64,000 nt of DNA from positions 64,001 to 128,000 of the forward strand of contig CAWFAK010000012.1 of the NCBI GenBank assembly GCA_963813715.1, in the 5' to 3' direction. The notes below the pieces were generated by a model. That model was not told where the DNA came from. It ran no database searches and worked only from the letters and a program-made list of their open reading frames with translations. This DNA is from an uncultured Planctomycetaceae bacterium. Lineage in GTDB: Bacteria; Planctomycetota; Planctomycetia; Planctomycetales; Planctomycetaceae. The position numbers and the translations under genes are program-made. Within the stretch, counting starts at the first letter, position 1; each line of letters opens with the position of its first letter. This document shows positions 2,252 to 63,000 of the stretch, piece by piece.

Positions 2252-2821
2252 ATGAACACCCACCCGTGGCACGACATCCCCTTGCCGAGTGACATCGTCG
2301 AGTGGTTTCCCGTCTACGTCGAGATCCCGCGGGGCTCGAACGTCAAATACGAGCTCGACAAGGCGACCGGCCTGTTGATGGTCAGCCGCGTGCTGTTTAG
2401 CGCGGTCTACTATCCAGCCAACTACGGCTTCATTCCGCAGACCTATTGCGAGGACGGCGACCCGCTCGACGTGCTGGTGCTCGGGCAGGAACCGGTCATC
2501 CCGCAGGCCGTGATGCGGGCGCGAGCCATCGGCGTGATGCCCATGCGTGACGAAAAGGGGCAGGACGACAAAATCATCGCCGTCCACATCGACGACCCCG
2601 AGTATCGCAGCTATCGCGACATCGAGGAACTGCCCGACTATCGCACGCTGCAACTACAGCGGTTCTTTCTCGACTACAAGGTGCTCGAAGGCAAGGAAGT
2701 CGTCATCGACAAGCCGCTCGGGGCCGAAGACGCGCTCAAGATCATCCACCAGGCGATCAGCGACTACGACCGAAAACGCCGCCAACTGATCGCCAAGACG
2801 CGCAGCCCGTTTGACAATTGA
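2252..2821 (+). CDS. ppa: soluble inorganic pyrophosphatase (family I)
   Basis: [41 protein letters not shown]. Confidence 0.95.
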
Positions 2822-2972
2822 TGTCAGATCGTTGACGTCGGAGCTGAGTTGGCCGCTGACGTTGGAGGTCGGACCTCTGGCGTCTGATCGCTGACGTCGC
2901 TGGCGAGACTCGCGCCCTGCCGGTTACAGTGCCGCCTACTTCTTTCCGCGGCAACGGGGCCCGAGTTGAGTT

Positions 2973-4530
2973 ATGAGCGTCCGCACGGCCGGGCTGGTCA
3001 CGGTTACGCTGTTCTACGCGATTTTTTTCGCCCTCGGGACCTACGTCGGCCGGCGCACGAAGAAGAACCAAACGACCGACGGGTTGCTCCTGGCCGGCCG
3101 CCGGTTGCCCCTCGTGCTGGGCGTGCTGACGATGACCGCCACCTGGCTCGACGGCGGCTACATCAACGGCACGGCCGAAAATGTCTACGCCAACGGCATC
3201 GTCGCCACGCAGGCCCCCTGGGGTTACGCGCTGTCGCTGATTTTGGGCGGGCTGTTCTTCGCCGCTCCCATGCGGCGGCACGGCTTCACCACGATGGTCG
3301 ACCTGTTCGACCGCCGCTACGGCAAAGAGGCGGCCGCCGTGCTCTTCGTGCCGGCAGTGCTCGGTGAAATCTTCTGGAGCGCGATGATTCTGGCCGCGCT
3401 CGGCATGACCTTCAGCACGATTCTCGAGATCAAGCAAACGCCGGCCGTCTCTGCTCTCGACGGCCATCGCCGTCGCCTACACGGTTCGCGGCGGACTGTG
3501 GGCGGTCGCCTGGACCGACGCACTGCAGTTCTTCTTCATGGCCGGCGGGCTCTGCCTGTCGATTCCTTTTCTGCTCGATCACGTCGGCGGACTATCCCAC
3601 GTCTGGACCGCGTACCACGACCAGCTTGGCACCAACGCGTCGCTCGTGCCTCCGGCCGCGGCGTTCCAATTTGCGAATTGGCGCGAGTCGTGGGGCTGGG
3701 GGTGGCTCGACACGGCGCTCCTCTTGATCTTCGGCGGCATTCCCTGGCACGTTTATTTTCAGCGAGTGCTGGCCTGCAAGACCGAGCGGACGGCCGTCGC
3801 CTTCTCCGTCTGCGCGGGCTTTTTGTGCCTGGCCATGTCGCTGCCGCCGGCCCTGATCGGCGCGATCGGCCGCACGATCGACTGGTCGCAGGCGCCGGTC
3901 GGTCCGCCCGAGAGCGCGGCCATGATCTTGCCCTATTTGCTGCGGAACCTGACGCCGCCGCTCGTGGCGGCCGTCGGCTTGGGGGCGATCGCAGCGGCCG
4001 TCATGTCATCGATCGATTCATCCTTTCTCTCGGCCTCGTCGATGTTCGTCTGGAACGTGTATCGACCGATCTTTCGCCCGGCCGCCGGACACGCGGAGAT
4101 TCGCCTGATGGTGCGCTTGGCCATTCTCGTGGCCGGCGGCGCGGCGGCCTCTCTGGCGCTCGCCACGACCAGCATTTATTCGCTGTGGGTGCTCTGCTCG
4201 GATCTGATTTACGTAATCCTGTTTCCGCAATTGGTCTGCGCGCTCTTCGTGCGCTGGACTAATGCGGCCGGCGCGATGGCCGGTGCGTGCACCGGGTTGG
4301 CACTGCGTGTGGCCGCAGGCGAGCCGACGCTGGGCATCCCCGCGCTCCTGCCGTTGCCGATCGACAGCCAGCACGGGTTCTACGTCTTCCCCTATCGCAC
4401 GGCAGCCATGCTGGCCGGATGGCTGGTGCTCTTGGTCGTCTCCCGTTTGACGCAAACAGCTTTCCCGCCGCGGAGTCTGGCCGTACCATCGTCGGACGGT
4501 CCCCTTCCCCAGTCAGACTCGCCCGCATGA
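2973..4530 (+). CDS. sodium:solute symporter, high-affinity choline transporter (SLC5A7/CHT1)-like; frameshift near 3455
   Basis: TATWLDGGYINGTAE, GGIPWHVYFQRVL, AAVMSSIDSSFLS, SDLIYVILFPQL; many TM helices. Confidence 0.85.
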
Positions 4531-5261
4531 GCGATCCCGCACCACAGATCTATTCGCCTCGGGAAAAACTGTTCGCCTACGCCGTCCACGCCTACACGGC
4601 GATGGGGCTGTTGTGCGCCGCGCTGATTGCCGCCGACATCCTGCAGCAGAACTATCGCCGGGCCTTCCTCTGGATGATCGTGGCCGTGCTGATCGATGCC
4701 ACCGACGGCACATTCGCCCGCAAGTTCCGCGTGAAGGACGTCGTGCCGCACATCGATGGCCGCAAGCTCGACGACATCGTCGACTACGTCAATTACACGT
4801 TCCTGCCGCTCATGATGATCGCCGGCGCCAATTGGCTCCCCGCGCCCGGCTGGCTGTGGATCAGCGTGCCGCTGGTCGCCAGCGTGTTCGCCTTCGTCAA
4901 TACCGGAGCCAAAGAGGAGACGAACGGCTTCTTCCTGGGCTTCCCCTCCTATTGGAACGTGTTCGCGTTTTACACGGCGGTCTGGTTTTCGGAATTCGGC
5001 CGCGGCCTCGTGCTGGCGATCGCGCTTGTGCTCAGCGGACTGAGCGTGCTGCCGCTGCGGTTCGTTTATCCGAACCGCGCGCCGCGATGGCGGATGCTGT
5101 TCATCGCCGGCGGGCTCGTCTGGCTGGCCATCATCGGCGTCATTCTCTGGTACTACCCACAACAACCGGTGCCCGCCGCGCTCCTCTGGATCTCGGCCGT
5201 CTATCCGGTGCTCTACGTCGTCGCGTCGCTGTATCTCGACCGGCGGCTGCGCGAGACCTGA
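4527..5261 (+). CDS. pcs: phosphatidylcholine synthase (CDP-alcohol phosphatidyltransferase family)
   Basis: VHAYTA, DATDGTFAR, IDGRKLDDIVDY, FLGFPSYWN, FVYP; ATGA overlap with the symporter stop. Confidence 0.8.
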   Translation: MSDPAPQIYSPREKLFAYAVHAYTAMGLLCAALIAADILQQNYRRAFLWMIVAVLIDATDGTFARKFRVKDVVPHIDGRKLDDIVDYVNYTFLPLMMIAGANWLPAPGWLWISVPLVASVFAFVNTGAKEETNGFFLGFPSYWNVFAFYTAVWFSEFGRGLVLAIALVLSGLSVLPLRFVYPNRAPRWRMLFIAGGLVWLAIIGVILWYYPQQPVPAALLWISAVYPVLYVVASLYLDRRLRET

Positions 5262-39479: not shown

Positions 39480-42232
<2,753 letters not shown>

Positions 42233-42540
42233 TTGAGCGCGAGCTTCTTGCTGAAAGCCATCGTGCGACGCGGAGAGCCTGTCAAGATCTCTGCCTGGAG
42301 GCCAAGCACAACGTGGCGAAGACTCCCGAGCCGAAAATCAGCACGAGGCCGATCGCCGTCGGCTTGAAGTGTTCGTTTGCGATGCCGTAGATCGAGATCG
42401 CGATCCCGCAAAGTGCCAATGCGGCGGCAGTACAAACGATGTAGTCGACAACGGTTTTCCCCCGCCAACTAAGACGGGTATCGCCTCCCGATTATTCCGG
42501 TCAGCCTCTGGGATTTCTTGGTTCCGGTCCGCCCATGGGT

Positions 42541-42649
42541 TTGCGCTGAGACCTACGGTTCGCCTTCGAACAGCTCCTGCCGCTGCTTGTTCTCTTGCTC
42601 GCCGAGCTCTTTGGCGTTGATGGCGCCGGCGCGTTGGAGCATTTGCCAC
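42541..42649 (-). repeat. orphan copy of the 3' end of the Ser/Thr kinase gene
   Basis: 105/109 nt identical to 47071-47179; encodes WQMLQRAGAINAKELGEQENKQxQELFEGEP*. Confidence 0.92.
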
Positions 42650-42733
42650 TGCTCGGAAACAATTTGCGATTCGCCTCGCCGCGCGGCACAATTCCTCAAT
42701 CTGTCGAAGTTCCTCGCGGAGTTGAGCGAAACC

Positions 42734-43998
42734 ATGGTCGCGCCCTCTCAGAGCCCGGCGGAACCGACCGCATCCGACAACATCGAGCTCCCCGAAGAGC
42801 TGCGGGCCCCGCCTCCGCGCGAAATCCCCGAGGCGATCAAACAGGGGCGGCTCTATCTCAAAAATCGAGCCATGAGTTGGACCCTGGCGGTGTTGGGGAT
42901 GGCCTGCGTGCTTGGCGATGGATTGCCGTTTATCCAAACATTGGCGCTTTATTTTTTGCCGCTTGAGTATTTGCTTTGGATTGGAATCGGACTGTGCGCT
43001 TGTGCGGCCTACGCTTATCTCGGGCCGCGTGAACTGAGGCGGGCGAAACAGTACATCGAGCAAGGCGAGGCGGCGTTCGGCCGGGTGACCAGCCTCGTCA
43101 AGACGCCGACAATGGTGCAGCACGGCCGGGCCGTATCCTTCGCCATCGTCGCCAACGTGCGACTGCGGAACCCCGAGAGCGGCGTCGACTGCCTGCGCGA
43201 GATGAAAAGCCGCAGCTTCGTGAACAAAGCGAAGCAGGTGCGATTTCGAGTGGGAGACCTCGTTCCGGTGGTTTGGTTCCCGGGAAAGTTCGAGCGCACG
43301 GCCCAGATCTATGATTTCCTGGAAGTTATGCCGGGACATGATCTTCGCGATGAGTCCACGCCGAAGCCCCTTTGGATGTTGATTGGGATAGCCGTCCTGT
43401 TGCCGCTCTTTTTCTTCGTTCTTGCCTGGAACGCCTATGCGATGGGGCGCATGAACCGATCGAGTTCACCGTGCGGCAGGGGATTTTGCCGTTTGGCGTC
43501 GGAGGCAGCGTCGCCTTTGCAATCATGGTTTGGATCGGCGTCGTTCAGCTCGCCAAGCGGAGGGAAATGAGGCGGCGAAACGCCGAGGCGGTCGCCACCG
43601 GCGGGATCGTGGAAGTCGAGGCCAAGCGAGGCGTGCGCACCAAAGCCGTGCAGTGGGTGCTCCTGCCGATCGGCGCCGTTTTGATTGGCGGCATGTCGTC
43701 ACTCAGCCTCTGCTACGGCGCCAACGCCCTCTTCGACAAGTCAGCGGCCAGGCCTGTTTCGATCTTCGTCACCGAAATGATTCAGGAAACGCACGAAGGG
43801 ATCTTCCGCGAGTACAAATTGAAATATCGTCGCGCCCAAGACCCAGAAGTGCATACTTTGATGACGACGCCCCAGCACCTTTCGGAGTTCAAGGTGCCAT
43901 TCGGGGTTGCGCAGGTGCGTTCCGGCTGGCTGGGGTGGCCTTGGGTCGAGACGGTTGACCCAGCGGCAGTCGCGCCGCCGGGACCAGGACAGAAGTGA
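42734..43998 (+). CDS. hypothetical multi-pass membrane protein (frameshift near 43450)
   Basis: ORFs 42518..43570 and 43372..43998 join into a protein with about 5 TM helices. Confidence 0.7.
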
Positions 43999-44075
43999 AC
44001 AAGGCTGTCGGGCAGGCCGTGAGTCTGCCGGAGGGTTGGGTCGGTGGTCGCTGTTGCCCGGGTAAACCACAGCCT

Positions 44076-44105
44076 GCCGCAGCGCAAGCGGCGCTCGCGA
44101 AGTAA
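44076..44105 (+). repeat. orphan copy of the ppdK 3' end
   Basis: encodes AAAQAALAK*, identical in protein to 42203-42232, with only synonymous changes. Confidence 0.7.
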
Positions 44106-44129
44106 CGATAGCGCCGTTCGCGAACCAAC

Positions 44130-44166
44130 CCCGGCGAGCCGCCCGCGTGAGCTGGCGGGTGCTTCG
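44130..44166 (+). repeat. REP-like element copy 1
   Basis: CCCGGCGAGCCGCCCGCGTGAGCTGGCGGGTGCTTCG; 35/37 identical to the reverse complement of 45420-45456. Confidence 0.8.
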
Positions 44167-44179
44167 TTCTGCCTCCTGC

Positions 44180-45373
44180 TCAGTGCGTGACTTTCAAATT
44201 GGGCACGGCGCGGATGAGCGATTTGACCCCGGCCACCGTCACGTCGGTGCCCTTGAGCGTCAGTTTCCGCAGCGCGGTCAAACCGGCCAGCGCCGCCAGG
44301 CCCCGATCCGTGATGGAAGAATTGGTTAGATCAACTGCGCGGAGCGTGGTCTTCCAGACCTCCAAGTGGTTCTGTAGCCCAAGCAGCTGAAAGTCGCTCA
44401 ACCGATGCGTGAAAAGAATCTCGATCAGCTTTCCGTTGTCGTCGAAAAACAGGGCACCGCCAGCATTCGTGATTGCCAACTGGGACAGGCTCTCGGCATG
44501 AGACAGATGGGTCACCTGCAGCTGAGGCAAAGCCTTCCTAAGGCTGGCGACGCCCGCGTCCGTGACGTCGGTGTCCGAGACCACCAAGAGCGCCAGGTGA
44601 GTCATGTTTTTCAAATGCATGAGCCCGGCATCGGTAATCGCGGTCCCCTTGAGGTTGATTTGCTCGATATTGTTGATTCCTTGCAGCGAGGCCAGACCCC
44701 CGTCAGTCACCTTGGGGCCACGCAGATGCAAGCCGGTCACCGAGCTCAGAACTTTGATCTTTGGGGCGATCTTCGTCAGCAGCGCATCGCCCTTTGATTC
44801 GTCCACTTTGACATAATTCCTGGCCGGTCCCGGTTGCGTCTCATCGGAATCCGCTTCTCCGCCCAGGTCCCGAATCGCCAAAATCGCTCGGGCATCTCGG
44901 ACTCTCGTGAGCGCGGCGGCGGACGTGTCACGGTCCAGGGTGAACACGCAGTACCATCCACCCGCGCCAGCTTTGGCCGAAAAGTCTCTGCCCCGCGCTC
45001 CTTGGTCGATCCGCAACCTGAGCCGATTCTCGTCGAACGCGTAAATGCCGCGAAAAATCAGTTGAACCGGCCGGTTTTGACCGGCGCCTCCCATCACAAC
45101 CGTCCGAGATAGATCGATTTGCTTGGGATCCTTCGCAGAATCAACCGTGTAGGAGAACTCAACGCCCGGGTCTGGCACCGACAGGAACAAAACCTTGTCC
45201 CCCTCGAACGCCAGTTGCACGCGCAGCATGGCGACGCGGGACTCGGCGGGGCAATCCACGTTGGTGACGCGCCAGATGCCCTGCAGCCGCTTTGGGTCCT
45301 CAGCAACCCGCGTCGTCTGCGCCCAGGCTGACGCACTGCTCAGAAGTAGGATGGCGGCAATCGTCCGGAACAC
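44180..45373 (-). CDS. secreted TIGR03067-like domain + leucine-rich repeat protein
   Basis: signal peptide; LQGIWRV, KDPKQIDL, GIY.FD..RLRL; VTDGGLASL/ITDAGLMHL LRR units. Confidence 0.8.
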   Translation of the reverse strand: MFRTIAAILLLSSASAWAQTTRVAEDPKRLQGIWRVTNVDCPAESRVAMLRVQLAFEGDKVLFLSVPDPGVEFSYTVDSAKDPKQIDLSRTVVMGGAGQNRPVQLIFRGIYAFDENRLRLRIDQGARGRDFSAKAGAGGWYCVFTLDRDTSAAALTRVRDARAILAIRDLGGEADSDETQPGPARNYVKVDESKGDALLTKIAPKIKVLSSVTGLHLRGPKVTDGGLASLQGINNIEQINLKGTAITDAGLMHLKNMTHLALLVVSDTDVTDAGVASLRKALPQLQVTHLSHAESLSQLAITNAGGALFFDDNGKLIEILFTHRLSDFQLLGLQNHLEVWKTTLRAVDLTNSSITDRGLAALAGLTALRKLTLKGTDVTVAGVKSLIRAVPNLKVTH

Positions 45374-45419
45374 TACCGATCCTTTACGCGCCACGCAGTC
45401 GCCGGACCGCACGAAAGCT

Positions 45420-45456
45420 CGAAGCACCCGCCAGTTCACGCTGGCGGCTCGCCGGG
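45420..45456 (-). repeat. REP-like element copy 2
   Basis: inverted partner of 44130-44166. Confidence 0.8.
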
Positions 45457-45469
45457 CGAACACCGTAGG

Positions 45470-47016
45470 TTACTCCGGCCACAACGCTGAAGTTCGGTCC
45501 CGGTGTGGTACCAGGAAAAAATTGCTGCGCTCCAGGCGGCCGCTTAAACCGCCGGTTACTACAAAATCGACGAGGTAGACTGGCTGAGCCCCAGACTTGA
45601 TCTTCTCGATCACACCCGTCATGCCGATCGAAACTTTTGGAGAGTACTCCGAGGGAACGACCCGGACGACCACCAAGTCGCGGTACTGCGGTTCGTCGCC
45701 GCAGAGCGAGCAGGCCTTGGGAACCAGGTCGCCGATGCGAAGTTGGGGCCGATTCTTCTGATACCACTCGTCGGTCGCGTCGCGGCCCAATTCGTAGATC
45801 GCGTTGCAAACGGGACACTTGCCGAACGGGAGCGCCGCCGCGGGGGTGAGATTCGCATCGGTTGGCTCGATGAGTCCTAACCGGCGCAGGATCTCGGCGA
45901 CGTGGCGGGTGACGTCCGCGACCGTCTCGCGCAGCACGATGTCGAAGTCCGCGAAGGTCGTCGGTCGCCAGTCCGCGATCAGGCGTGCGATTACTTTGGT
46001 CTGGTCGTCATCCCTAAGATGCCACCACTTGTCTTTCCCGTCGACGAGCCCTCCGATCCGGTAGATTCCTTCGGAAGATTGCCGAGCGAAGTCCTCTTTG
46101 GGCGGATCCCATTGGGCTGGCGGCGAATTGGGATCGGCGCAGAGGATGACGTTGAGGGTGAAATCGTCGATTTTCGAGGCTTGGTCCGACTGCTGAAACC
46201 AGAGATAAACGTGCCACCCCGACGGCCGCGCCGTTCCGGCGTCGAATGTGCTCTCCCCGGGCGGGAGTCGCCCAGCGGGCTCTGTTAACGAGCGCACGAA
46301 TGGGAAGGACAGCTCCCATTGTTTCTTGAGCGCCGTGATCAAGGCGAGAAATGAGCCACTTTCCGGCGCCGGCGTCGACGAACCCTCCGGCAGCGAATTC
46401 GAGACCACCATTCGTCGCATCAGCGCGCGGCGCGATTCGGCTTTCAGCTCTTCGTCTGAGATCCTGCTGTCGACAGAGGCCTGGGCCGGCGTCGGCTGTT
46501 TGGTCTGCAAAGCCTGCATCCGCCACTGGAATTGGAGGTCGTCTTCGCGCGACGCGGTTCGCGTCACGCTCAAACCGGGGCGAGCCGCAAGCGCCGCGCC
46601 CAATCGCTCGCGATGATCGCGCAGAAGTTCGTCCGGCGGGGTTGCGGCGGGGTGCCTTTTGCAGTCGATCCCGGGATTGGTCGCGCCGGCGCGCTCTCCA
46701 GCGTGTTGGTTGTCGTCAAAAAAGTTCCATCGTTCAGCTCGGACCCCAGCTCGATCGTCTGGATGTTGAGAGTCCGCTTCGGGGTGATCGATTGGAGGTG
46801 ATAGTGATAACTCGAGATTGTCCCATCCGCGCTCACCATCGCTCGAACGAACGTCCGCAGCTTGGGAAATGCGCGGGTCAACGTCAGGTTCTCCCGGTCA
46901 CCGAGCAACCGAAAGCCGAGCGACTCGATCGCAGCCTGAGTCTCGTCGTAGAAGTCGTGATCCGCCGTTAGAAACTTTGCCGGATCGACCCATTGATACT
47001 CATAGCGATCGGGCAT
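45470..47016 (-). CDS. hypothetical protein(s), probably one frameshifted gene; C-terminal CxxC..CxxC pair
   Basis: ORFs 46570..47016 and 45470..46603 overlap; CPVC and CSLC near the C-terminus. Confidence 0.55.
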
Positions 47017-47038
47017 GGCGATTCCTCGGTCGACGCTG

Positions 47039-47057
47039 ACGCTGGCGGCTCGCCGGG
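47039..47057 (-). repeat. REP-like element copy 3 (partial)
   Basis: ACGCTGGCGGCTCGCCGGG identical to 45438-45456. Confidence 0.7.
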
Positions 47058-47082
47058 GTCGACTCGCGCCTTGCGCTGGGAC

Positions 47083-48729
47083 CTACGGCTCGCCTTCGAA
47101 CAGCTCCTGCAGCTGCTTGTTCTCTTGCTCGCCCAGCTCTTTGGCGTTGATGGCGCCGGCGCGTTGGAGCATTTGCCACAGGTCGGTGCTGAGCTGGGTG
47201 CGGCGTTGCGTGAGGTCGCCCAGGTCGTAGATCAGGGACTGCGACTTGCGGTAGTCCTTTTGCAGCGTGGCGATGACCGCTTCGCCCGCGACACCGATCG
47301 AATGTTCCTTCGGGTTCTCGCGGCCCATGCCGTCCAGCTCGCTGAAGAGTTTGCCCGCTTCTTTGAGGCGCAAGGTCCGCAGGTAGAGCACGGCCAAGCG
47401 TTCCTTCGCCTGCACGGTGTAAACGCGGTCGTCCGGGAAGTAATCGAGGACGGCCTTCCAAGCGTCGGGGTCGGAACGGAGCTGCCTCGCCCGCTCGAAT
47501 TGTTTTTGCGCGTTGATCTCGCGGGGCGCGTTTTGCTTGATCGTCGGCGTCTGTAGCGGATCGGTCGGCCGCAGCCACCAGCCGACCGCGGCCGACGCGC
47601 TGCCTAGAATCAAGGCCGCGATGCCAAGCGCCGTCAGGTGCCGGGAGAGGGGCCAGTCGAGGAAGCGTTCGCGCCACGTCGGCGGGCCGCTCGGCGCCGC
47701 GACGGTGGCTGCGCTCGGGCTCGACGCAGGCGTGGAGGCGGCCGTCGGAGTGGTGATTTCCGAAAGCCGCACGGCGCCGGCCGCGTTCGGATCCTCTTTG
47801 ATCATCCGTCCGACTTTTTTGAGATCCTGCGTGATCTCGCGGGCGTGCTGGTAACGGTCGGCCGGGGCGCGGGCCATCATCTTGTGGACGATTTCCGAAA
47901 TCACCGGCGGCAAGTCGGGCCGCAGCGTCGCGAGATCGTCGGGCGTGTGCGTCATGTGCTGCATCGCCAGCGTCAGCGTCGTGTCGCCGCGGAACGGCGG
48001 ACGGCCCGACAGCATGCGATAGCACGTCACGCCGAAGGAATAGATGTCGCTGCGGTGATCGACGCTCTCGCCGTTGATCTGCTCGGGGCTCATGTAGAGC
48101 GGCGTGCCCATCGTCATGCCGACCTGCGTCAGCTGCTGCACGCGATGCTCCGATTCGGCCAACTGAGCCAGACCGAAGTCGGCGACCTTCGCCTCTCCTT
48201 TGCGGGTGATGAGAATGTTCTCGGGCTTGATGTCGCGATGGACGATGCCCGCCTCGGCGGCGGCCGTCAGCGCCGAGGCGACTTGCCGCATGATGTGGTA
48301 GGCGACCAACAGCTCGGGGGGACCGCGGCGATTGAGCAGTTGCCGCAGGTTCATCCCCTGCACGTATTCCTGGGCGATGTAATATAGGCCGTCCTGCTGG
48401 CCGAACGAATACACCTGCACGATGTTGGCGTGCATCAATCCGGCGGCCGACTTGGCCTCCAGTTCGAACCGTTTGAGGATCGTGACGTCCGACAGCAGCT
48501 CGGGCCGCAACACCTTGACGGCGACCTGCCGATGCAGCGAGGTCTGCTCGGCCAGGTAGACTTCCGACATGCCGCCGCGACCCAAGGGCCGCAGGATGCG
48601 GAACTCGCCGAGCTGTTTGATCCCGTCTTCGGAGATTTCCTCGAAGAGCTCGGGCGCAGTCGCGTCGGAGCGGCCAGAAGCGAGATCGGCCCCACTCGGT
48701 GGCGATTCGTCATCCGGCGACGCTGGCAT
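47083..48729 (-). CDS. Hanks-type Ser/Thr protein kinase with TM helix and extracytoplasmic helical domain
   Basis: LGRGGMSEVY, VAVK, HRDIKPEN, DFGLA, GTPLYMSPEQ, SDIYSFG. Confidence 0.95.
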   Translation of the reverse strand: MPASPDDESPPSGADLASGRSDATAPELFEEISEDGIKQLGEFRILRPLGRGGMSEVYLAEQTSLHRQVAVKVLRPELLSDVTILKRFELEAKSAAGLMHANIVQVYSFGQQDGLYYIAQEYVQGMNLRQLLNRRGPPELLVAYHIMRQVASALTAAAEAGIVHRDIKPENILITRKGEAKVADFGLAQLAESEHRVQQLTQVGMTMGTPLYMSPEQINGESVDHRSDIYSFGVTCYRMLSGRPPFRGDTTLTLAMQHMTHTPDDLATLRPDLPPVISEIVHKMMARAPADRYQHAREITQDLKKVGRMIKEDPNAAGAVRLSEITTPTAASTPASSPSAATVAAPSGPPTWRERFLDWPLSRHLTALGIAALILGSASAAVGWWLRPTDPLQTPTIKQNAPREINAQKQFERARQLRSDPDAWKAVLDYFPDDRVYTVQAKERLAVLYLRTLRLKEAGKLFSELDGMGRENPKEHSIGVAGEAVIATLQKDYRKSQSLIYDLGDLTQRRTQLSTDLWQMLQRAGAINAKELGEQENKQLQELFEGEP

Positions 48730-48936
48730 GCTCGATCGATCCTCAAAAACAGGCGGCACTTACAGTTGTACAAAGGCGCGGGAACGAGCCGCAAGCTGTC
48801 CCGGCGGCCCCGTGACTTTACCCCGGTTGCCGGGGTCTTGTATCATGGTTTGTCGATGCGTTATTGGTGAGCGCTCGCTTGGGCCGCTCCCATCTGCGTC
48901 GACTTCCTTGGGTCGAACTGCTGAAGAGGAACGCGC

Positions 48937-60015: not shown

Positions 60016-63000
60016 TCAGAACCCGTGCACCAACCACCACACGCTGGCCAGCAGGGCCGCGGCTGCCGCCACGCCTCCCGAGATGATCGCCAGGCGCTTT
60101 TTCGATTTGCCGACGATCGGCGCGGCGGGCGGTTCTCCCACCCGCTCGGTGCCGGAGACTTCGACGGCCGGCGCCAACTCCAGAATCAGCGAGTCTTCCC
60201 GCTCGAACTTGCGGCGGAGATCTTCGATCCGCTGCAACTGCTGGTTGATGGCGTCGACCGACGCTTCCTTGACGGCCCCTTTGTCCGCGGCGGCGTTGGC
60301 GTTCGCGGCGGACTCGATCGCCTTGGGCTTGCGGCTCGCGCGGACAGCGGCGTCGGCCGCCAGCACGTACGACGGATGTTCCCGCGACGCGGTGTCAGCC
60401 AAATCGAAGTATTTCGCCTGGCCCGCGTCGAGTCGCAAGACCATGAACAGGCTCGCGCTGAAGCGGTCCCAGTGCGAGGCGCTGGCTTTCGCGGCGCCCT
60501 CGCCGGCCGTGAGCTTCTGCGGCATCGCATAGATCTCGACAAATGAGCGGTCTTGAGCGGCTGATGCGTTGGGATCGGGTCGCGCGGCCGGCTGACCGGC
60601 GGCCGTTCGAGCGGCCAAGGCCGAAGGTTGCCAGGTGCGGCACTCGCGCGCGATGAACTCGACGCCCGGTCCGCCCAACTGCCGATCGAGCACAGAGAGT
60701 TCGGTCAGGAGGTCGGACAACTTCGACGACGAGGCCGAGCCCGGTTCGACGATCATCCGCAGCCGCGGACCCTCGACCCGCGGTCCGGCATCGGCAGCGG
60801 CCGCGGTTTTTCCAGTCCGCGCTCCTGCGAGTCCCCCCGCCCGGCTGATCAGCGAAAAGACTTCCGCCAGCTCTTCTCGCTCGATTTTGAGCCGCGTCCG
60901 CTCCTCGTGCAGGCGGCCGAGCAGGACCTGCAGGTCGGCGACGGTTTCCTTGGGCGTTTGCGTGAGGCTCCAGGTGTGGAGCGAGTCCTCGCCCGGCTGC
61001 AGCCGCTTCCGCTCGTCGCGGAGCTGCTTGAGCGCCTTGTGGATGTCGGCCTCTTTCTTGGCGACCTGGGCCCGCTCTTCCATGTACGCGACCCGCGACG
61101 CCTCGAACTTTTCATTCTGCTGCCGCAGCTCCGAGCGGGCCGCTTCCAGCTCTTCGCGGGCGATTTTGAGCAGCCGCTGGTCGGCCTCGTATTGGGTCCG
61201 CAGCTCGGCGTATTTCTTCTTGTCGCGCTCGACGTCCTTTGCCTGCTCGCGGGCCTTGGTTCGGTCGTGCTCGAGGTGCTGGCGGGCCGACTCGACGGCC
61301 GCCTTCTGGTCGCGGATGTCGTCGTGCGCCGCCTGCAATTCGTCCCGCTCGGCCTGGATGCGGGCCGACTCCGACTGGACGTGGGCGATCTGGACCTTGA
61401 ACTCGGCCAGCTCTTTGTCGAGTTGCCGCCGCCGCTCGTCAACGTCTCGCCGCAGCTTCTCGGTTTCTGCCCGCTCCTTCGCGGAGGCCGCCTCGCGGGT
61501 CGTCACGCTTTCGACCGCGTGGTCGAGCTGCTTTTGCCGCTCGGTCAGCGACGACTCGCGCGTGTCAAACTCCCGCAGACGGCTTTGCAGTTGCTGCTCG
61601 CGGAGAGCGAAGTCGGCTCGTGTCGCCTCGGCTTTGGCGACTTCGGCCCGGAACTTCTCCACCTCCGTCTTGAGCGTTTCCCGCTCGTCGGCCAGCGACT
61701 GCTCGGCAGTCGACAGCTCGTCGCGACGGGCCCGGAGTTCGTTCTGCTGCGTGCGGAGCTGCTGCTTCTCTTGCTTGAGTTTTTCCGCCGCCTCGCGCAG
61801 GTCGATGGCCGCCCGCTCGGCCTGCTCGGCTTTGACCACGAGCGTCGTCCGCTCTTCGTCGAGCCGCGTCTGCAGGGCACGCAGGTGCCCTTCCCGTTCA
61901 GCCAACTCCTTCGACCGATCGGTCAACTGCTCGGTATCGGCTTGGAGCCTTTCGAGTTGGCCAGCCAGCCGCTCGCGCTCGTCTTCGAGGGCGTCCTTCT
62001 GGCGATCAAGCTCGGCCTGCACGCTCGCGGCCTGCGCCGCCTTTTGGCCGAGCGACTCGCGCTCCTTTTCGATGTTCCCCTTCTCGCCCTGCAGCCGTTC
62101 GATCTCGGCCAGCAATTTTTCGCGTTCGGCGGAGACGCGGGCCCGCTCCTCCTCGATCGATTCCTTTTGCCGCTGCAGGTTGGCCTCGTCCGACTCGCTT
62201 TGGGCGGCCCGATGGCCGAGCGATTCGCGCTCTTTTTCGAGCTGCGCCTTCTCGCTTTGCAGCCGCTCGATCTCCGCCAAGAAGTTCGAGCGTTCTTCGC
62301 CCAGACGGGCCCGTTCGGCCTCGAGCTGCGCCTGCGTTTGCTCCAAGTCCTTTTGCCGCTGCTCCACCCGCGCCGCGGCTTCGGCGGCCGCTTCTGCCGC
62401 CTGGGCATCGTTGATGCCCGCGCGCGGTCGAGGTCGAGTTCGGCGGCTTGGCGGTCCAGATCGGCCTGCTGCGTTTCGAGTTCGCTCTGCTTCGTCTTCA
62501 GCGCCTCGCGATCGGCTTCGAGCGCCTGCCGCTCTTCCTCGAGTTTCGCTTCGAAGGCGCACAGGTCGTCCTGCCGGGCCCGCAACAGCTCGGCCGCCTC
62601 GCGCAGCTTGAACGTGGCTGCCAGGTCGTCGGACGGGGTGACCTGCGGCTTTGCCGGCTCGGCCGTTTTCGCAGGCTCGTCGCCGCCAGCAGCCGCGGGC
62701 TTCGCGGGCTTCTTCTTGGCACCGGCCGCACCCTTACGAAACAGTGCGCCCAGGATGCCGGTCTCTGCCGGGTTTACTTTCTCGCCGATGGCCGGGAACT
62801 TGCCCAGATGCATCCGGTGAAGCATCTCCCAGTCGAGGCGGGCCGCGCGGGGAACATCGTCCCGAATGGCAGCCGCCGCATCGTAAGCGATGGCAGCCGC
62901 GTCGGCGACTTTATCGCCCACGGCGTTGAGATCCTCACCGTCGGCGACCGAGCGTACGGCGGAGGCCGCGTCGATCGCCGCATAGGCCGCGTTGGCAGCG

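Follow-up and report, generated by a model that had tools for sequence, protein, structure and literature searches.

Duplicated 3' gene ends between ppdK and a protein kinase gene as candidate scars of 3'-end displacement in an uncultured Planctomycetaceae bacterium

Introduction

How does the interval between two conserved, convergent genes come to contain a second copy of the last codons of each of them, separated by unrelated genes and with no recombinase in the vicinity? This question is raised by a 64,000-nt window (positions 64001-128000 of the 463-kb contig C12) of the genome of an uncultured Planctomycetaceae bacterium (assembly G000; 7.49 Mb, 18 contigs, 83% complete). Here, the slot between ppdK, which encodes pyruvate, phosphate dikinase, and the gene of a Ser/Thr protein kinase carries one orphan copy of the 3' end of each gene. 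An initial annotation, made from the sequence of the window, had interpreted the slot as a possibly undescribed, integrase-free hotspot in which alleles from related strains were stacked. With a confidence somewhat above even, we read both orphan tails as scars of two separate 3'-end displacement events in a variable slot, brought about by homology-facilitated illegitimate recombination (HFIR) or an equivalent integration of end-joined circles.

The nearest relatives of G000 are metagenome-assembled genomes (MAGs) titled "Planctomycetaceae bacterium", and most of the sequencing runs containing the slot stretch bear the label of a soil metagenome. Twelve genomes of the genus, G000 included, were searched for the comparison with relatives, which are referred to by the codes G002 to G010. 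The reality of the arrangement was checked in contigs of four soil runs (X1 to X4) and in three Joint Genome Institute (JGI) metagenome contigs (L030, L031 and L032).

Two orphan 3' ends in one interval

A repeat search of the window returned a single two-copy family, a direct repeat of 116 nt with 95% identity (42541-42656 versus 47071-47186) that includes the end of the kinase gene. Only two copies of this repeat exist in the whole assembly, as determined by blastn with 42000-47400, in agreement with the kinase-tail duplication described initially. Three differences fall within the coding part, two of them synonymous and one leading to a Leu>Arg exchange, and identical runs within the repeat reach roughly 45 nt by hand count. 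The inner edge of the kinase copy is precisely the point where the homology between G000 and G002 ends. At this junction, the copy in G000 reads TTTGCCA(A)C followed by TGCTCGG, and the real kinase reads TTTGCCAC followed by AGGTCGG. The break between the kinase copy and the region upstream of the membrane gene lies at ~42650 with a microhomology of 1-2 nt, and judged by these letters the junction is of the illegitimate type.

The ppdK-end repeat is considerably shorter, with 25/28 identical positions in the repeat search (42203-42230 versus 44076-44103) and a longest identical run of 16 nt. Reading of both copies by eye bore out that the orphan (AAAQAALAK plus stop) differs by synonymous changes only, with three such differences and a stop codon (TGA, TAA) at the end of both tails. 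A chance match is excluded for this tail, as 0/100 shuffles of the window gave two ppdK-tail matches at ≤3 mismatches and the 28-mer has only two occurrences in the genome, with no third at ≤5 mismatches. Neither orphan tail appears to be conserved as coding sequence, because L031 and L032 contain an extra A at 42647 within the kinase copy and the stop codon of the orphan ppdK tail is altered in L032 (44104 A>C).

The arrangement in independent soil assemblies

Duplicated gene ends around a variable interval could also result from the concatenation of two slot haplotypes by the assembler, and the G000 assembly is indeed error-prone: ppdK is spread over three frames, indels at 42430 and 43450 are contradicted by clean contigs, and the MAG is incomplete and divided into 18 contigs. 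Contrastingly, every junction of the slot is bridged by contigs of the four independent soil runs and by the three JGI contigs from other samples. The passage from the ppdK end through the gene of a small protein with two transmembrane segments (2-TM gene) into the kinase copy is contained in record 1 of X1 and record 10 of X2 (both 42093-42611), record 17 of X3 (42201-42648) and record 25 of X4. The passage from the kinase copy into the membrane gene is contained in record 26 of X4 (42599-43122, with 51 nt to the left of the junction), record 3 of X1 (42620-44614) and record 14 of X2. Record 3 of X1 also bridges the membrane gene, the ppdK copy, a REP element and the leucine-rich repeat (LRR) gene, and record 15 of X2 covers 43980-47141, reaching the real end of the kinase gene.

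Furthermore, the JGI contigs are colinear with the window (L030, 42064-44809, 96%; L031, 42130-43735, 98%; L032, 39400-45364, 92%, part of an 80.7-kb contig), and one metagenome contig of 2756 nt contains the real ppdK end, the kinase copy, the membrane gene, the ppdK copy and the start of the LRR gene. Depth over the slot is even at roughly 6-10, and the soil-run contigs end within the kinase repeat, which is how a de Bruijn assembly should behave at a genuine repeat. The ppdK-tail copy is also present in G002, a different species-level genome. An assembly artefact is thus extremely improbable, and the chimera of two strain haplotypes that had been considered as an explanation is contradicted by the independent contigs bridging each junction.

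An ancestral junction behind the ppdK orphan

The stretch 44076-44172 of the window, comprising the ppdK copy, a spacer and a REP element, matches the real ppdK end plus REP of G002, G006 and G007 with 78-79% identity over ~100 nt. The homology of the orphan tail to these relatives starts at 44072-44076, and no extended homology is present at the breakpoint. The LRR gene directly adjoins ppdK in G007, and the LRR protein of the window shares 57% amino acid identity with the product of this G007 gene, which lies directly between ppdK and the kinase gene. The LRR gene is the ancestral ppdK neighbour. Because the tail of the 44076 type plus REP matches that of the relatives and the LRR gene adjoins ppdK in G007, the orphan tail is best understood as the old ppdK end, still attached to its ancestral REP-LRR neighbour. 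The stretch 42231-44075 would accordingly be DNA that was added upstream of the orphan, together with a new ppdK end. In a contig of one soil run, ppdK (to 42165) is followed by 37 nt, exactly the missing length, and then by position 44076.

G002 likewise encloses a copy of the ppdK tail plus REP (its positions 3867-3931 versus 89-152, 77%), lacks a kinase-end copy, and contains a REP element and an AA_permease_2 gene where G000 has the kinase copy. As only the ppdK orphan is found in G002, the ppdK event appears to be older than the split of G000 and G002, and the kinase event specific to the G000 lineage. The initial view of a unit consisting of ppdK end, cargo and kinase end that occurs twice does not hold, since the membrane gene is situated between the kinase copy and the ppdK copy and the two orphans differ in their history, as seen from G002.

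Slot turnover among relatives

A ppdK end and a convergent kinase orthologue within 7 kb were identified in six of the 12 genus genomes (G000, G002, G003, G006, G007 and G009). In G010 the two are located on separate short contigs, and in the other five genomes the best kinase-like matches are found elsewhere and may be paralogues. The kinase DNA matches adjoining ppdK have identities of 77-81% in G003, G006, G007 and G009 and of ~91% in G002, the latter within the 42648-48900 alignment. The six genomes contain five different slot contents, with G003 and G009 being identical in this respect (Table 1). Cargo turnover, which the initial annotation had suggested looking for, is present in the relatives, and the interval is not invariant. 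From these comparisons, the ppdK-kinase interval presents itself as a recombination-driven variable slot between conserved flanking genes.

A variant contig was detected in X1 and X3, in which 45358 is joined to 47084, connecting the LRR 5' end with the kinase stop and skipping both hypothetical genes; the short side of this joint measures 30 nt and is borderline. This variant corresponds to a G007-like arrangement in the same soils.

Divergence along the slot was additionally compared between G000 and L032, with 33 differences in 41900-42184 (285 nt), 25 in 42185-44174 and 67 in 44175-44900 (726 nt). Per 150-nt window, ppdK differs by 8-20% up to 42184 and by ~1% thereafter, figures that involve an unreliable G000 ppdK consensus. 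L031 represents a third type of ppdK end, with 16 differences from G000 in 42142-42184 and then none until 42405, and over the hypothetical genes, record 6 of X1 departs from G000 at 12 positions in 1.7 kb (0.7%). The stretch 42185-44174 had been considered as a mobile unit bounded by the ppdK tails; this candidate was downgraded, as the hypothetical genes are also <1% diverged and the G000 ppdK is unreliable. More likely, the strains are ~99% alike and ppdK and the LRR 3' half were replaced by diverged alleles, with tracts ending where homology with slot-less donors ends. Owing to the unreliable consensus and possibly chimeric contig ends, little weight was given to the block-like divergence. 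The greater likeness of ppdK to that of G008 (90.5% versus 88% to G002) as a sign of an imported ppdK was not used, since indel errors in both the G000 and the G002 assembly depress the G002 identity.

Orphan 3' ends at other loci of the genome

The initial annotation had proposed a scan of the genome for further orphan tails. Genome self-comparison yielded 95 local low-copy repeat pairs, from which 35 short high-identity pairs were chosen by eye. An equivalent stop codon and a frame of ≥120 codons in one copy were present in 17/35 pairs, including the kinase pair, which served as a control, and two aldo-keto reductase pairs. Alignment, translation and Pfam were applied to five further loci, of which four were accepted and one was rejected, so that orphan tails occur at no fewer than four other loci (at least four, Table 1). 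The rejected candidate (C5:235831/237575) consists of a 406-codon frame antisense to a real minus-strand gene, with the repeat situated upstream of that gene.

The polarity is the same in every accepted locus, with the intact gene followed by cargo and then by the orphan; the orphans are located 0.7-6.7 kb downstream and the cargo is unrelated. At the MetH locus, G003 and G009 contain a single tail, directly followed by the neighbour that comes after the orphan in G000, and the 684-nt cargo had no DNA match in the 11 other genus genomes. Several amino-acid changes are present in the MoxR, transferase and MetH orphans. Counts of synonymous and non-synonymous changes were considered as a test of an imported allele versus a decaying duplicate, and were discarded as too few and too mixed. 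Just upstream of the window, a 159-nt direct repeat (C12:58860-59018 versus 60783-60940, 92%, 1.8 kb apart) was observed that does not have the equivalent-stop signature.

Table 1. Features of the ppdK-kinase slot in the window, accepted orphan loci elsewhere in G000, and slot contents of relatives. Positions are those of the window unless a contig is given.
Feature	Position	Strand	Remarks
ppdK (pyruvate, phosphate dikinase), left conserved flank	39480..42232	+	82-90% DNA matches in genus genomes
Real ppdK 3' end, reference copy of 28-nt repeat	42203..42230	+	
Small two-TM protein gene, ~56 aa, TTG start	42282..42451	-	Intact ORF in L032
Orphan kinase 3'-end copy: last ~33 codons, stop and 12 nt of 3' flank	42541..42656	-	
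Membrane protein gene, 421 aa, no known family	42734..43998	+	One-base indel at 43450 in assembly
Orphan ppdK 3'-end copy (AAAQAALAK and stop)	44076..44105	+	Putative displaced resident tail
REP element copy 1, 37 nt	44130..44166	+	
LRR protein gene	44180..45463	-	Pfam LRR_6; weak TIGR03067 planctomycete domain
REP element copy 2, inverted relative to copy 1	45420..45456	-	95% complementary; overlaps annotated 5' end of LRR ORF
Hypothetical gene, 377 aa, no family	45470..46603	-	Common to G002
Hypothetical gene, 148 aa, no family	46570..47016	-	
REP element copy 3, more diverged	47035..47077	-	79% complementary
Ser/Thr protein kinase, 558 aa, right conserved flank	47083..48759	-	Pfam Pkinase, E 1.3e-49
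MoxR AAA_3 ATPase orphan	C17:1074603 / 1079414		134 nt, 88%, 4.7 kb
Hexapeptide transferase orphan	C9:39906 / 44233		148 nt, 90%, 4.2 kb; cargo BlaR1-like M56 peptidase and BlaI-like repressor
MetH orphan	C5:544575 / 543799		92 nt, 91%, 0.7 kb; cargo BamE-domain gene
Aldo-keto reductase, two successive orphans	C12:298068 / 301199 / 304758		Distal one shorter, frameshifted
G007 slot			ppdK-REP-REP-LRR-REP-kinase
G003 and G009 slot			REP and 464-aa M50-peptidase/TPR protein
G006 slot			3.4 kb, no family match
G002 slot			REP, AA_permease_2 gene, then stretch colinear with window 42648-48900 at 91%

Recombinase genes and genomic surroundings

The genome contains 11 matches to the tyrosine recombinase family PF00589, none of which is located on C12 or near the four other orphan loci. 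Pfam scans of the eight open reading frames (ORFs) of the slot and of 70 flanking ORFs of ≥140 aa (30000-60000, ~12 kb around) identified no recombinase or transposase family. Serine recombinases were likewise absent from these scans of slot and flanks, no genome-wide search for serine recombinases or DDE transposases having been made. The statement that no recombinase is nearby is therefore in agreement with our results for the slot, its flanking ORFs and, in the case of PF00589, the entire contig. The nearest Y1-transposase match (C12:190957) is ~80 kb away, and the slot is surrounded by ordinary genes encoding oxidoreductases, a glycogen-debranching enzyme, an FHA-domain protein and PSCyt/PSD1 proteins as well as by pqq genes.

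Gene content of the slot and assembly quality

The order of features given in the initial annotation is supported by our reading of the sequence, with the exception of the 2-TM gene, the hypothetical ORFs, the REP elements and the frameshifts. The 2-TM gene, formerly called a remnant, is intact: a T is inserted behind 42430 in all four runs, and L032 contains one ORF. The single hypothetical gene listed between the LRR and kinase genes is replaced by two ORFs, both on the minus strand (Table 1). In the G000 assembly, ppdK is spread over three frames with many frame changes, as seen in a three-frame translation, and the membrane gene is represented by two overlapping frames (ORFs 42518-43570 and 43372-43998). 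L032, a clean metagenome contig, contains intact frames for ppdK (one open frame of 964 codons ending in AAAQAALAK), the 2-TM gene and the 421-aa membrane protein. As these genes are intact in L032 and the T at 42430 is present in four runs, the frameshifts seen in all three are consensus errors. Single-base indel errors are numerous in the G000 assembly (39480-42232; 42430, 42647, 43450), and the resulting fragmented gene calls probably contribute to the completeness figure of 83%. For annotation, the frameshifts of ppdK, the membrane gene and the 2-TM gene should be treated as assembly errors and not as signs of pseudogenes, and gene calls on the orphan tails should be avoided.

Three copies of a 37-nt REP element that had not been listed initially are located at the cassette borders, and REP copies also occur at cassette borders in the slots of the relatives. 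The element is GC-rich and present in 39 copies genome-wide at ≤8 substitutions. Copies at C7:398130, 398264 and 398904 flank a Y1 (IS200-like) transposase match (PF01797, C7:398553-398843). As a short, imperfect palindrome in multiple copies, some of them flanking a Y1 transposase, the element corresponds to the description of the REP/RAYT family, the hairpin having been read by eye.

Homologues of the cargo genes were found at unrelated positions. The 2-TM gene is single-copy in G000 and matches a small gene located elsewhere in G003, G006 and G009 with 85-87% DNA identity, and the membrane protein has a homologue with 55% amino acid identity between unrelated genes in G004. No Pfam, PADLOC or NCBIfam match was obtained for the membrane protein and both hypothetical proteins. 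PADLOC matched none of the cargo proteins, yielding no defence or other functional label, and NCBIfam matched only the LRR protein (TIGR03067, 37.1 bits, below the cut-off of 40.15). The 3' half of the LRR gene (44175-44620) occurs in two alleles that are ~10-13% apart in strains ~99% identical elsewhere, one type being represented by L032, X1 and X2 and the other by G000 and X4. L030 is a mosaic, with the G000 type at 44181-44214 and the L032 type at ~44245-44700. This pattern looks like allele replacement or diversifying selection in a putative surface-type protein. Around the 2-TM gene in G003 (locus L016, G003:C1:419500-426000), positions 2400-4700 are a patchwork of multi-copy intergenic repeat families with matches scattered over the contigs of G000. 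The flanking genes of this locus map to different G000 contigs, which indicates that gene order in the genus is poorly conserved.

Proposed origin of the orphan tails

An intact gene, foreign DNA, a displaced tail, a homology-free junction and no recombinase are found together, and one-sided homologous plus illegitimate recombination is therefore the simplest process. DNA from a related strain with different slot content would find homology within the conserved flanking gene and pair there, and its other end would be joined illegitimately within the last 30-100 nt of the resident gene copy. Since the incoming DNA would bring an intact 3' end, the gene would stay whole, and the resident tail would be pushed downstream with its old neighbour attached. 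A first event, anchored in ppdK, would have occurred before the split of G000 and G002: a ppdK-REP-LRR-...-kinase allele, as in G007, would have gained a ppdK 3' part and cargo ending with the membrane gene, leaving the orphan ppdK tail in front of REP-LRR. A second event, in the G000 lineage only, would have joined a short allele (ppdK, 2-TM gene, kinase) to a long G002-like allele, so that the orphan kinase tail would have ended up between the 2-TM gene and the membrane gene. Which strains were the donors, in which direction DNA was transferred, how it entered the cell and which enzymes took part are matters of inference; RecA could act at the anchor, and Ku-type end joining or replication slippage at the other end. 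Homologues of Ku, ComEC and DprA are encoded in the genome, which speaks for plausibility only. The Ku homologue is located at G000:C14:17842-18360, and one was found in 1/14 control genomes.

The footprint expected from such events is distributed over several loci. An intact anchor, foreign cargo and a truncated direct 3' tail are present at the kinase, ppdK, MoxR, transferase, MetH and aldo-keto reductase genes. The orphan is joined to the ancestral neighbour at ppdK (G007 arrangement) and at MetH (G003, G009), and a junction with no or few nucleotides of homology is seen at the kinase copy (1-2 nt) and at the ppdK orphan. The earlier proposal that alleles from related strains were stacked remains the best reading of the tails insofar as slot alleles joined in series are concerned, and the donor strains would be the conjectural part of it.

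Several observations weigh against 3'-end displacement. No donor allele was found, and the short allele was not recovered in a search for exact matches to a 32-nt degenerate pattern of the 2-TM gene. The matches comprised three species-representative loci (G003, G006 and G009, with the gene elsewhere) and three metagenome contigs, all of the stacked form; this failed search does not show the absence of a donor. The homologous crossover inside ppdK or the kinase gene was not located, and no single record spanning both kinase-end copies was seen among the four-run and JGI contigs. The kinase copy carries the 12-nt 3' flank of the kinase of G000 and not that of G002, and its differences are unique to the copy. 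HFIR has been shown experimentally in few species, namely S. pneumoniae, A. baylyi, P. stutzeri and, by conjugation, E. coli (PMC3240628, PMC2884548), and is not known from experiments in Planctomycetes.

The features of the kinase copy bear most directly on a duplication within the genome, by tandem duplication or template switching followed by indels and drift, for which no foreign DNA would be needed. The copy is closest to the kinase end of G000 itself (95% versus 92% to that of G002), and its copy-unique differences and G000-type flank fit intragenomic duplication with drift as well as a closely related donor. A tandem duplication, however, predicts adjacent tails and duplicated cargo, neither of which was seen. 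Moreover, the orphan ppdK tail is more like the tails of other lineages than the resident tail and still adjoins REP-LRR, at the MetH locus unrelated DNA is cleanly inserted between the two tails, and homologues of the cargo occur at unrelated loci in relatives, altogether rendering an intragenomic origin very unlikely. A further route is Campbell-type integration, in which a fragment of the long allele, from upstream of the membrane gene to the kinase 3' end, would be circularised by end joining and inserted by a single crossover in the 116-nt kinase tail of the short allele, with an earlier analogue at the ppdK tail. Any direct repeat of the form A-X-A can formally arise in this way, the identical runs of the kinase repeat are long enough for RecA, and one illegitimate join (circle closure at ~42650) plus one crossover equals the number of steps in HFIR. 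The circle carrying both gene tails that had been suggested is not required, as one homologous crossover and one illegitimate join per event suffice; Campbell-type integration as such is indistinguishable by sequence. Against it, the ppdK repeat of only 28-30 nt with its 16-nt run is marginal for homologous integration, and no circle junction or excised form was present among the joints listed in the soil-run contigs. We consider this route unlikely.

Duplicated 3' gene ends around inserted DNA are a classic sign of integrase-mediated islands, and the duplicated ends flanking the inserts described here could thus derive from decayed site-specific integrative elements (genomic islets, or elements like cis-mobilizable elements, CIMEs), which would carry the tail in their attachment site, would have lost their integrase or used one in trans, and would have accreted in tandem. 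In line with this, 65-nt repeats of tail plus REP flank the cargo in G002, and the low-divergence block 42185-44174 has its edges near the two ppdK-tail copies. Replacement of ppdK and LRR alleles on a ~99% background, to which the hypothetical genes conform, accounts better for the block, and neither the 463-kb contig nor the vicinity of the other four loci contains a tyrosine recombinase, nor do the slot and its ~12-kb surroundings contain any recombinase family. The repeats range from 28 to 189 nt, each ending at the stop of its own gene with no common site, and six different genes would necessitate many site specificities. A look for an attachment core returned the 16-nt (ppdK) and roughly 45-nt (kinase) identical runs; length and target differ at every locus, and the loci compared include no independent insertions of one and the same element. 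Integrative elements are therefore distinctly unlikely as the source of the scars.

Relation to known systems and implications

In integrase islands, 3'-end direct repeats flank the insert, the target gene stays intact and stacking is possible, all of which resembles the slot described here. Contrastingly, no integrase is found in or near the slot, and the repeats are irregular in length, 4-12% diverged and distributed over many target genes. Integrons share the gathering of cassettes at one place and short palindromes at cassette borders, but the slot has no IntI-type integrase or attI, its border palindromes belong to the 39-copy REP family and the orientation of its cassettes is mixed. HFIR is reportedly the subject of De Vries & Wackernagel 2002, Prudhomme et al. 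2002 and Meier & Wackernagel 2003, and displacement at Rhs loci is said to have been treated by Jackson et al. 2009.

HFIR is described for transformable bacteria (PMC2884548) and for E. coli conjugation (PMC3240628), and has been proposed for the effector-immunity arrays of type VI secretion systems (T6SS) and for "strings of orphaned 3' regions" of Rhs loci (Kirchberger et al. 2017, PMC5361080). The slot agrees with HFIR in that one end is anchored by homology in a common gene, the other is joined without homology or with a microhomology of few nucleotides, and foreign genes come to lie beside the anchor. It differs in that the process is deduced from natural genomes of uncultured Planctomycetaceae, would act from both convergent flanks of one interval, and leaves displaced tails that persist. 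Rhs, contact-dependent inhibition (CDI) and T6SS arrays are similar in that each module that arrives takes the place of a gene's 3' part and moves the former 3' end, along with the genes downstream of it, backwards, resulting in integrase-free strings of orphans (PMC5361080), and the aldo-keto reductase locus with its two successive orphans has the same layout. The displaced ends of these arrays are variable toxin tips with immunity genes that are kept by selection (PMC5361080). The orphans described here, unlike these, are conserved tails of ordinary genes (ppdK, kinase, MetH, MoxR, transferase, reductase) that are apparently non-coding, and the cargo is unrelated to the anchor.

To call the hotspot undescribed was too strong, given the orphan tails at other loci and the displaced 3' ends already described for Rhs and T6SS (PMC5361080). 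Nor is the slot special, because such tails recur elsewhere in the genome. The process is known; what is new is the setting, that is, ordinary genes, both flanks of one interval and several loci in one planctomycete genome. Such scars are found at no fewer than six genes of a single genome, one of them with two in series, and natural footprints of one-sided recombination have seldom been documented except at toxin loci and in laboratory transformation.

As a tentative and rather doubtful extension, recombinase-free 3'-end displacement might be a routine, genome-wide mode of gene gain in this planctomycete lineage, with conserved 3' ends serving as reusable docking sites. If so, DNA arriving from relatives whose genes are arranged differently would bring its own tail copy together with new neighbours, the interval between convergent genes would be loaded from both sides and gather cassettes, and the orphan tails would record the order of events. 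Should this apply across the genus, it would help to explain gene gain in large, poorly syntenic genomes without mobile-element machinery, and an orphan 3' tail in direct repeat with an intact gene would provide a signature for ordering acquisitions in MAGs.

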